Assembly (NCBI GenBank): GCA_964520725.1
Contig: CAZFQF010000001.1
Location: 1-32,158 of the forward strand
Direction of reading: 5' to 3'
Length of the DNA stretch: 32,158 bases
Source: an uncultured Muribaculaceae bacterium
GTDB taxonomy: Bacteria; Bacillota_I; Bacilli_A; RF39; UBA660
The position numbers were made by a program, and so were the translations under genes. Under the pieces are notes generated by a model. That model was not told the origin of the DNA. It did no database searches and was given only the letters and a program-made list of their open reading frames with translations. Shown in pieces: positions 1,074 through 3,245 of this stretch; position 1 is the first letter of the stretch; each line of letters begins with the position of its first letter.

Positions 1074-3245
1074 TTATTCACCTTCTATATTGTTAAACTT
1101 GCTATAAATATCATCATATATTACGTGACTTTCAATATCAACAGGAATATATGAATTTAACTTTTCAAAATTTTCATCCTTTTTATCAATAAAAATTATA
1201 TTAGTCATATATAAATTGCTTCGATCTTTGGGCGGAATATTACTTCCATCTTTAAATCCTAAAGCAAACTTATATCCACTTTTTCGTATTCTTTTAATTA
1301 TTTTTTTATTTGCTACTAAGTCCGCAAAATCAATTAAGATTATAATATGTGATTTTGCATATTCATCATCGATCATTTTTAATGTTCGCCATAATTTTTT
1401 TTCTTTTGTATATAAACTTACAGGTAAATTAACAATATATTTATTACTAAATTCTGCATTTAACATATTTTCAATAATTAAAGAAAGTAATAAATTAAAT
1501 AGCACTGGCATTTTATCTTCAGCAATAATACCTTCTTCATATGTTTTATCAATAATATATTCACTATAAATTTTATTAAAAGTAACATTATGTTGTAATT
1601 CAGTAGCATATAAATCCTTTTTAGATTTTACTTTATTTAAATCTAAGTAGAAAACATTCGTTTCATTTTTCTTAAAGAAATATCTTAAGATTTCTTCATA
1701 TGTTTTTTGAGCTGTAATAATATTGTCTATGATCATTGTAAGTTTTTCATTGTCCCAATCTTTATAATAATTAGTTATCTCACTACGATAAAATTCTTTT
1801 TTAGCTTTGGTTTCGCTAATTGATAATTTCGCTTCATCTAATGAGGCAATAATTTTAATGATTTCAACATATTTATCAACTTTTTCACTGTATTTAACAT
1901 CTGCACCATTATATTCACTACATATTTCTTTAGCTACTAATTTTAGTATTTTGGCAATTTTAACACTAAATTTATTACCTTGATATTCTAAGTCTTTTTC
2001 ATTATAGTAATTGTAATATTTAGCATGAACATAGGTTGTCATAAAAATATTTTTAATTGTGGGCTCATTGGTTTGGACTCGATCAACATCTTGTAAAATT
2101 TGAATGATCTCATTTAACTCATCTTTTTTGATATTAACAAAAGCATCAATCATATTTTTATTTTTACGAGTATTATTTTTTAATAATTCTAAATCAATTT
2201 TCGTTAAGCCTTCTTCAGATTCTTCTATTTTTACAACTGGTTCCACTTTTTCTTCTTTTGGCCCTTTATTTTGTTCTGCTAGTTCATTTTTAGCTATCTC
2301 TAGTAAAGTCTGGTCTAATTCATTTGTATCAACAGGAATTATTCTGAAAAATTGTGTTTTTTCTAATTCATCAACATGTTGATCATAATCTTCAAATACT
2401 TCTTCTTCTAAATCTAAAACTTCTATTTTTTCATCATCCATTATCACTTCTGTAATTTCTGATAATTCTTCAAGAGACATAACTTTATTATTAACCTCTT
2501 CCATTTCTTCATCAATTTTTAATAAATTTTCGCTGTTATCAAGATTATTATTAATAGAAATTTGTTCTTCTTCAATTACTTTTTGATTTTCTTTTTTAGA
2601 TTCTTCAATCATCTCTTTAATTAGCTTTGTACGATTTTTGGTTTTATCTTCTGGTTGTGATTTTTTAAGTTCTTTTTTCTTATTGTTTTTTCTTAAAAAT
2701 ATTTTCTTTATTTTAATTTGAAACCCTTTAGTATCTTTTTCATCTTTCATTAAAGAGTCAAAAAGGAATAAAGTAATAAGTAACATTATTAGAACCCCAG
2801 GATTAAAAACAGTTTTTCTAAGAATTCCAAATCCACTTAATATTTTTGTTACTTTTCCAACTATTTGAGTTTGATCTACAGGAACATCTTTTCCACTATT
2901 AGCATCTCCCTTAGTAATATAGGTCCCATTATGAATTTCAACTACTCGGTGAGTGATGTATTCTTTATCTAATTTATAAGTAACAATGTCATTTAATTTA
3001 ACTTTCGACTTAAATTTAACAATAATCCAATCTCCAGAACAAATTGTTTCTTCCATACTGTCAGTTTGAACTTCGAACATAGTATAACCAAAAAAATTGG
3101 CATAATCTTGCCCTAAAAGCTTAACTTGTACACCTGTATAAGTAGTTATTAATAAAATTATACTTAGTATTCCAATTAAAATATTAAGAAAGAAATTATT
3201 AATTTTGCTTATAAGTCCTTTTTTGTGTTGTGTCATACTATCCAA
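1074..3245 (-). CDS. ER/archaeal-type (S26B, SipW-like) signal peptidase I fused to a ~550-aa cytoplasmic extension (acidic/Lys-rich linker plus a C-terminal domain, possibly a degenerate EAL-like fold)
   Basis: 723-aa ORF with AGGAG upstream of the ATG. The N-terminus has a TM segment followed by the four S26B boxes: TDSMEET (Ser), GDWIIV, ITHRVVEI (His rather than Lys) and TKGDANSGKD. A second TM (VFNPGVLIMLLITLFLF) places the rest in the cytoplasm. The C-terminal pattern YIVNLPVSL...HIIILIDFAD...IRKSGYKFALGFKDGSN...IIFIDKK resembles the EAL-domain order (NlS / lEiTE / G..iAlDDFGtG / KiD) but with the catalytic residues replaced. Confidence 0.75.
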   Translation of the reverse strand: MDSMTQHKKGLISKINNFFLNILIGILSIILLITTYTGVQVKLLGQDYANFFGYTMFEVQTDSMEETICSGDWIIVKFKSKVKLNDIVTYKLDKEYITHRVVEIHNGTYITKGDANSGKDVPVDQTQIVGKVTKILSGFGILRKTVFNPGVLIMLLITLFLFDSLMKDEKDTKGFQIKIKKIFLRKNNKKKELKKSQPEDKTKNRTKLIKEMIEESKKENQKVIEEEQISINNNLDNSENLLKIDEEMEEVNNKVMSLEELSEITEVIMDDEKIEVLDLEEEVFEDYDQHVDELEKTQFFRIIPVDTNELDQTLLEIAKNELAEQNKGPKEEKVEPVVKIEESEEGLTKIDLELLKNNTRKNKNMIDAFVNIKKDELNEIIQILQDVDRVQTNEPTIKNIFMTTYVHAKYYNYYNEKDLEYQGNKFSVKIAKILKLVAKEICSEYNGADVKYSEKVDKYVEIIKIIASLDEAKLSISETKAKKEFYRSEITNYYKDWDNEKLTMIIDNIITAQKTYEEILRYFFKKNETNVFYLDLNKVKSKKDLYATELQHNVTFNKIYSEYIIDKTYEEGIIAEDKMPVLFNLLLSLIIENMLNAEFSNKYIVNLPVSLYTKEKKLWRTLKMIDDEYAKSHIIILIDFADLVANKKIIKRIRKSGYKFALGFKDGSNIPPKDRSNLYMTNIIFIDKKDENFEKLNSYIPVDIESHVIYDDIYSKFNNIEGE

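Follow-up and report, generated by a model that had tools for sequence, protein, structure and literature searches.

A SipW-like signal peptidase fused to a predicted EAL-fold pseudoenzyme and encoded beside an McrB-like GTPase in uncultured Bacilli

Positions 1 to 32,158 of contig CAZFQF010000001.1 (GenBank assembly GCA_964520725.1) make up the whole stretch of DNA analysed here, which we call the window. On its minus strand, an open reading frame (ORF) at 1074-3245 joins a SipW-like signal peptidase to a long C-terminal region that ends in a predicted EAL-fold domain, and the gene directly downstream encodes an McrB-like GTPase. A preliminary description of this ORF had tentatively read it as a SipW-type peptidase wired to a receptor for cyclic diguanylate (c-di-GMP). 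Here, we describe its C-terminal module as a conserved, previously undescribed component, and its attachment to the peptidase as a fusion variant, of a system that has been named but not characterised, CoCoPALM.

The preliminary description gave the ORF 723 amino acids (aa), which is indeed its length from a TTG at 3245 to the stop codon at 1074-1076. However, the likelier start is an ATG at 3236, three codons downstream of the TTG and with an AGGAG 9 nucleotides (nt) upstream. It gives a product of 720 aa, which is annotated identically in one public assembly. Residue numbers in this text count from the TTG unless stated otherwise; those counted from the ATG are three lower.

The N-terminus of the fusion is a signal peptidase of the archaeal/ER (endoplasmic reticulum) type. 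This archaeal/SipW-type (S26B-like) domain (2742-3245, minus strand) lies between two transmembrane segments and was delimited by TIGR02228, Peptidase_S24, hydropathy and charge. The N-terminal 170 aa score 66.1 bits against TIGR02228 (archaeal/ER-type signal peptidase I), for which the curated cutoff is 51.85, and also match Peptidase_S24 at 2.9e-8. Against NF046067, the equivalog model of Bacillus SipW, they reach 43.5 bits where the cutoff is 190. Since this is far under the cutoff, we call the fusion peptidase SipW-like and do not consider it a SipW orthologue. All four boxes that the preliminary description had listed as intact (TDSME, GDWIIV, THRV and KGDAN..D) were found, with the catalytic Ser63 of TDSME at 3057-3059, His99 of THRV at 2949-2951, and the GDAN box at G113-N116. 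Among 75 fused orthologues, Ser63, His99 and GDAN are each conserved in at least 80-95%.

The catalytic domain is flanked by two hydrophobic segments, at aa 11-44 and 144-168 (aa 8-41 and 141-165 counted from the ATG). Charge amounts to +3 ahead of the first segment and to +12/-3 across the 30 aa past the second. By the positive-inside rule, this distribution predicts an N-in/C-in topology, with the catalytic domain outside the cell and everything past the second segment in the cytoplasm. Hydropathy and charge thus agree with the cytoplasmic placement that had been supposed for the C-terminal domain. The Glu/Lys-rich linker of about 200 aa that had been noted after the second transmembrane segment is likewise present. 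It is a predicted cytoplasmic stretch of 189 aa (2175-2741, minus strand) with 21% Glu and 15% Lys, poorly conserved and of different length among orthologues. A regular expression and alignment delimit within it a short linear motif, HVDELEKTQFFRIIPVDTNELDQTLLEIAKNEL (2280-2378, minus strand), with the consensus [DE][DE]L[ED]KTx[FY][FY]R[IV][IV][PS]VDxxE. By regular expression the motif is matched in 58 of the 75 orthologues, with one to three copies in each (related loci that carry it include L011, L016, L019, L022 and L064), and the rest of the linker is unconserved. The alternating pattern of the motif suggests that it could be a beta-strand docking element. It is absent from the free-standing modules considered below.

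The C-terminal folded module comprises the last 366 aa, a helical domain followed by an EAL-fold domain. AlphaFold2 modelled it with a predicted local distance difference test score (pLDDT) of 87.5 and a predicted template modelling score (pTM) of 0.85, as six helices followed by an alternating beta/alpha domain, which bears out the earlier impression of about 340 aa of folded-looking sequence. According to the AlphaFold2 secondary structure, the six-helix domain covers aa 358-523 (1677-2174, minus strand); it belongs to no recognised family, having zero Pfam or PDB sequence matches. The EAL-fold alpha/beta domain covers aa 524-723 (1077-1676, minus strand), as defined by AlphaFold2 and Foldseek. 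A model of this domain only (the last 200 aa, from a broader alignment of 41 sequences) reached a pLDDT of 89.4.

When the whole-module model was compared to the PDB with Foldseek, nearly all matches were EAL domains. With the domain-only model, ranks 1-38 were all EAL domains, with a probability of 1.00, TMq of 0.5-0.61 and 167-191 aligned columns. The best match was FimX (4ag0_B; E 1.2e-5, TMq 0.58-0.61), and the EAL domains matched were those of FimX, Bd1971, MucR, MorA, LapD, PA3825, BifA, RbdA, PdeA and YdiV (4es4_A and 3tlq_A). The last ~200 aa are thus predicted to adopt an EAL-type beta/alpha barrel fold, and, since the ranks hold EAL domains only, the preliminary description was right about the fold. 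The domain is nevertheless short, 200 aa versus the ~250 aa of an EAL domain, and covers 167-191 of ~250 target columns. It ends after the seventh strand, and therefore the last beta-alpha unit, which carries QG[YF], is missing.

The EAL similarity that structure comparison finds is not detected by sequence profiles. Pfam, NCBIfam and PDB sequence searches with the last 366 aa gave zero matches, and searches of the PDB that started from the single sequence or from two profiles of the family gave chance matches only. The Pfam EAL model (PF00563) did not match the window protein or 20 close relatives, and matched faintly in 2 of 50 distant relatives (best E 0.06). A custom EAL hidden Markov model (HMM) found nothing significant among 240 family sequences. 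Alignment of two family profiles to six E. coli EAL proteins (PdeH, PdeK, BluF, PdeG, YdiV and PdeL) with hhalign gave P 0.09-0.33, a weak negative given an EAL profile that is small and carries no secondary structure. Its local register, which is non-significant, places GYKFAL onto xALDDFG and DYIFIDK onto DxxKIDK.

The EAL signatures were mapped onto the family by motif order, predicted secondary structure and this non-significant hhalign register, not by structural superposition. On such a mapping, the family as a whole conserves none of the metal- or c-di-GMP-binding EAL residues (E/R of ExLxR, N, ExxE, DD, K, E). The position of the EAL Glu is variable, and the R of ExLxR has become His or Tyr. 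The position of the metal-binding Asn is occupied by Tyr, Asn, Met, His, Glu or Asp. There is no conserved acid at ExxE, the DD pair is either absent or shifted by two residues, and the catalytic Lys position holds Phe or another hydrophobic residue. E. coli YdiV keeps the EAL signature better than this family does in the alignment. Altered signatures had been pointed out for this ORF before, and the loss extends to every catalytic or binding residue across the family. Judged from its sequence, the EAL-fold domain is a catalytically dead pseudoenzyme.

The family has a conservation pattern of its own. In the alignments, the most conserved stretch of the module is HNxxFxKxYSxYxxDKTYxEGxxAEDK (aa 552-578; 1512-1592, minus strand). 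It holds the family-invariant Glu576, and the HNxx...AEDK block as a whole is a feature of the fused subfamily. Family invariants are E576, Y603, K617 and G657, and F532, Y560, S561 and K614 are nearly invariant. The family-specific conserved residues include H552, N553, Y560, S561, K567, E576, K578, K614 and K617. An exhaustive profile search placed 427 representative clusters in the module family at E<=1e-3. Together with the 127 genomic loci described below, this establishes the module as a real family and not a chance ORF.

The gene directly downstream of the fusion (1-1070, minus strand, cut by the window edge) was identified as an McrB-like GTPase by its motifs and ~80 orthologues. It starts 3 nt past the fusion stop codon, and a full-length orthologue has ~510 aa. 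Walker A (GISGTGKT), Walker B (ILDEMN) and the NxD signature (GTINNDD) are conserved in the ~80 orthologues, GTINNDD being present in 78 of the 81 that were compared, as expected of an NxD GTPase. A hydrophobic segment and a heptad-like charged stretch, i.e., a membrane anchor and a coiled-coil-like region, are visible at the N-terminus, where Pfam gave no FtsB/DivIC match. The membrane anchor takes the place of the DNA-binding domain. In orthologous loci the GTPase gene is followed by an McrC-like gene of ~378 aa, which would lie outside the window. It encodes DUF2357 (the McrC N-terminal domain), in which a T.NTYENKF block is conserved, and a helical tail (12646-13782 in L001; ~70 orthologues). 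No conserved PD-(D/E)xK nuclease motif was found in 75 ORFs of this McrC-like partner, and therefore the McrBC-like pair is unlikely to be a restriction enzyme or to cut nucleic acid.

Three architectures of the module were distinguished among the best 150 of the 427 clusters: fused to the peptidase (640-870 aa), free (320-357 aa), and fused to another anchor. In the third (P0098 and P0112; 8001-9797 in L093), the module forms the C-terminus of a ~590-aa protein with a membrane anchor that is not a peptidase, and the gene is followed, with a 4-nt overlap, by McrB-like and DUF2357 genes. The explanation that peptidase-less homologues are all truncated was considered and discarded. Some are fragments or frameshifts (L012 and L043), but a genuine free-standing subfamily exists. 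In six contexts outside the fused clade (L085, L089, L090, L091/L092 and L093), the module gene is the immediate 5' neighbour of the McrB-like and DUF2357 genes, in most cases no more than ~15 nt away or overlapping. In these unfused contexts, the fusion peptidase has its orthologue in a gene of its own, one or two genes upstream of the module. The constant partner of the module is hence the McrB-like/McrC-like pair. Because this adjacency is kept where the peptidase is separate, the fusion can be read as a Rosetta-stone event that joined two components of one system.

NxD McrB GTPases with a transmembrane and coiled-coil N-terminus have independently been tied to signal peptidases and pilus assembly (Bell et al., 2024, eLife, PMC11090510). 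That work named CoCoPALM in one paragraph and deferred its analysis (Bell et al., 2024). The gene cluster described here shares with CoCoPALM the NxD McrB GTPase, the DUF2357 McrC-like partner and the associated signal-peptidase genes, and on these sequence features we assign it to the CoCoPALM systems. Neither an EAL-like domain nor the peptidase-module fusion is mentioned in PMC11090510, whose supplements contain no text on CoCoPALM or EAL, and a search of one literature library found no follow-up paper on CoCoPALM.

A locus scan with one genome per species gave 127 loci, of which 80 were retained. All 80 come from metagenome-assembled genomes (MAGs) of uncultured low-GC Bacilli, Mollicutes, Tenericutes or Erysipelotrichia from guts and digesters, although a few bear taxon labels that are implausible. 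Gene order is near-invariant: TasA-like paralogues, p543, p1217, p193, p495, p179, the fusion, the ~510-aa GTPase, the ~378-aa McrC-like protein, a SipW-type peptidase, and a ~409-aa protein. In these 80 loci, each from a different species, the start of the McrB-like gene abuts or overlaps the stop codon of the fusion. The SipW-type gene encodes a second, plain peptidase of ~190 aa and, in nearly all loci, lies two genes past the GTPase (13797-14387 in L001; TIGR02228 2e-19). Locus L085 carries three peptidase genes.

Upstream of the fusion in the window, and also on the minus strand, lie genes for the secreted proteins p495 (with a LamG domain), p193 and p1217 (4384-10085), which have T-[YL]-[AST]-x-[FYL]-type motifs after an N-terminal hydrophobic stretch, and for the conserved cluster members p543, p354, p450, p230, p487 and p490 (12471-20895). 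Among the latter, p354, p450, p487 and p490 (14270-20895) are secreted paralogues with an N-terminal TasA/CalY-like 'VSTYAWF' motif, and two of them, p487 and p490, match the Ig-like surface domain PF16403 as well. Loci differ in how many copies of the 'STYAWF' paralogues they carry. The motifs that follow the hydrophobic stretch in the cluster are 'VSTYAWF', 'GITYSLLY', 'SITYTFAKY' and 'IPTLASF'. Their TasA/CalY-like character makes the upstream proteins candidate substrates of the peptidase, i.e., putative fibre or adhesin subunits. The nearest upstream gene, p179 (3806-4345, minus strand), encodes a two-transmembrane protein with faint similarity to signal peptidases (NCBIfam E 0.03-0.19) and without the SM or THR catalytic motifs. 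It stands directly upstream of the fusion in ~70 related loci and is probably a pseudo-peptidase, to judge from its missing motifs.

The spacer between p179 and the fusion (3246-3805) is 560 nt in the window compared to ~100-130 nt in most related loci, and reaches 1-4 kb in a few (L012, L016, L019, L033, L037, L039, L049 and L057). It contains two hairpin and T-run sites, recognised by eye. No ORF of at least 60 aa and no Rfam match was found in it, and an Rfam search of the whole window gave zero matches. The spacer has the look of a site of variable insertion or of a decayed gene. A promoter-like site with a TG (TTTACA-18-TAAAAT; 3270-3299, minus strand) lies a short way upstream of the ORF; it is a consensus match only, in AT-rich DNA where 32 such sites were seen and 28 would be expected by chance.

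Some observations concern the wider window and its source. A gene for a UbiA-family prenyltransferase and one for a DUF6080 membrane protein (10239-12405, minus strand) lie between p1217 and p543. Since p1217 and p543 are adjacent in the related loci examined, this pair is a lineage-specific insertion. Cumulative GC skew has its minimum at ~25.8 kb, at the change of coding strand from minus to plus that the divergent genes at 24148-25797 and 25878-26837 mark. A replication-related skew switch or an effect of transcription might explain it. CA* MAG records that carry the cluster (L002, L004, L010 and others; assembled as third-party data, TPA) are often labelled 'uncultured Muribaculaceae', a taxon of Bacteroidota. 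They are probably mislabelled, because their sequence, GC content and synteny match those of Bacilli/Mollicutes MAGs.

We propose that the SipW-like peptidase would be active and would cleave the TasA-like signal peptides of the fibre or adhesin proteins encoded upstream. Its second transmembrane segment would lead into the flexible, charged cytoplasmic linker and then into the helical bundle and the EAL-fold pseudoenzyme. This module, as a core subunit of a CoCoPALM-type system, would dock onto the membrane-anchored complex of the McrB-like GTPase and its McrC-like (DUF2357) activator. Through docking, GTP hydrolysis inside the cell would be coupled to, or would gate, the processing of subunits or the assembly of fibres outside. 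We give this account, in which the peptidase processes the cluster proteins, the module docks on the GTPase complex, and processing or assembly is linked to GTP hydrolysis, slightly better than an even chance. The analysis itself gives the identity of the peptidase, its topology, the EAL fold, the loss of the EAL signature and the gene adjacency kept across three architectures; that the module touches the GTPase, and which of them controls the other, are the parts that we infer. A bolder version, in which an McrBC-derived membrane GTPase motor would act through a dead EAL adaptor to drive or gate how TasA-like fibre subunits are processed and polymerised, seems to us rather doubtful.

Several points weigh against the adaptor model. 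The homology to EAL domains is drawn from predicted structure alone, at template modelling scores of ~0.5-0.6 and a root-mean-square deviation of 4-5 Å. By analogy with EAL domains, the conserved residues of the module would be located in beta2-alpha2 and beta3-alpha3, on the ligand-binding face of the barrel. Several of them are Lys, Tyr or His, and therefore a small phosphorylated, non-canonical ligand would be possible. Adjacency of genes is the sole basis for having the module touch the GTPase. Finally, the role of the conserved linker motif finds no explanation in the adaptor model.

EAL domains are nearly synonymous with c-di-GMP, and it was suggested that this degenerate one acts as its receptor. 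The step from fold to receptor is the part of the preliminary description that found no support. Gene context, which lay outside its view, is decisive for the interpretation through the fixed McrB-like and McrC-like partners. A module that receives c-di-GMP or another nucleotide, like FimX or LapD, and signals to the peptidase or the GTPase would account for several observations. By structure, the module is closest to the EAL domains of FimX, which are degenerate and bind c-di-GMP, and LapD is matched as well. The family-specific conservation sits in the segment that lines the EAL nucleotide site, and Lys, Tyr and His are frequent in it. Relatives that stand alone often retain an acid where the 'N' would be and, close to the DDFG position, an 'LDD.F' motif. 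Faint Pfam EAL matches, though none better than E 0.06, do occur in 2 of the 50 distant relatives. However, the family conserves none of the canonical contacts and lacks the beta8/QG[YF] unit, and profile searches find no EAL. YdiV of E. coli, which is not known to bind c-di-GMP, has retained the signature better than the family has. The conserved partner of the module is a GTPase and not a cyclase. An EAL HMM found no canonical EAL gene among the ORFs of the 1.3 Mb that flank the module in 80 host genomes, a weak result that is uninformative on whole genomes. We therefore regard canonical c-di-GMP binding, as far as the lost signature tells, as unlikely, and a receptor role for any nucleotide as quite improbable. 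The EAL fold is all that would speak for an active c-di-GMP phosphodiesterase. Of the metal ligands, the catalytic Lys and the general-base Glu, every one is either missing or not conserved, and with the failed profiles and the missing QG[YF] unit this activity is excluded for practical purposes.

EAL domains commonly dimerise, and the module might be only a scaffold or oligomerisation domain that clusters the peptidase in the membrane, with no functional link to the GTPase. This would suit a pseudoenzyme without an active site that is tethered to the membrane through different anchors in different lineages. Yet in many lineages the module is free in the cytoplasm and peptidase-less, and still always adjoins an McrB-like gene, so that clustering of peptidases cannot by itself account for the free modules. 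We consider a pure scaffold unlikely, if not strikingly so. The opposite view, that the McrB-like/DUF2357 pair is an unrelated defence island beside the peptidase and that the module has an independent role, could appeal to the fact that McrBC relatives are mostly restriction or defence systems (PMC11090510). It is hard to reconcile with the same position and order of these genes in ~80 species and in distant lineages, across three module architectures, or with start and stop codons that abut or overlap. Nor does it suit a GTPase with a membrane anchor in place of a DNA-binding domain and an McrC-like partner without a conserved nuclease motif, and we give it very little credence. The probability left over by these readings goes to something else.

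If the coupling proposed in the adaptor model is real, the fusion would offer a testable handle on CoCoPALM function and a further example of a degenerate EAL domain that works without its nucleotide. The hosts are abundant, uncultured Bacilli with small genomes from guts and anaerobic digesters. Assembly of TasA/SipW-type fibres, which takes place outside the cell, is believed to proceed with no source of energy. If the bolder, motor version were true, it would reveal a previously unrecognised assembly machine for pili or fibres, driven by nucleoside triphosphate (NTP), in Gram-positive gut bacteria.

The fusion can be compared with four known proteins. SipW of Bacillus subtilis, the peptidase of TasA and TapA, is of the same Ser/His archaeal/ER class, has two transmembrane segments, and shares an operon with TasA-like secreted fibre proteins. 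However, SipW has ~190 aa and a short tail, whereas the fusion carries ~555 aa of cytoplasmic sequence past the second transmembrane segment. SipW reportedly has a second, non-proteolytic role, which Terra and colleagues are said to have assigned to its C-terminal region in 2012. LapD of Pseudomonas fluorescens and Vibrio cholerae is a membrane protein whose cytoplasmic degenerate EAL domain controls an extracytoplasmic adhesin protease. It resembles the fusion in this linkage of a membrane-bound cytoplasmic degenerate EAL domain to an extracytoplasmic protease, and was matched by Foldseek. Different from the fusion, in which the protease is in the same polypeptide, LapD, driven by c-di-GMP, sequesters LapG, a protease that is a separate protein.

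The EAL domain of FimX from Pseudomonas and Xanthomonas, the best structural match, is likewise degenerate and non-catalytic. FimX controls how pili are built by way of a hexameric assembly NTPase (FimX-PilZ-PilB). It binds c-di-GMP and has a complete barrel, whereas in the module family both the binding signature and the last beta-alpha unit are missing. The NTPase partner is PilB-like in one case and McrB-like in the other, and sequence identity is 11-19%. YdiV/RflP of E. coli and Salmonella is an EAL-like pseudoenzyme that acts by protein-protein contact only and hands its client to an AAA+ machine. The module shares with it the EAL-like pseudoenzyme character, seen in the Foldseek matches 4es4_A and 3tlq_A, but YdiV is a soluble anti-FlhDC factor that has kept more of the EAL signature and has no link to a peptidase or to McrB. 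By analogy, and without membership in either group, the closest functional counterparts of the module would be YdiV, as an adaptor to an AAA+ machine, and FimX, as a degenerate EAL domain acting on a pilus NTPase.

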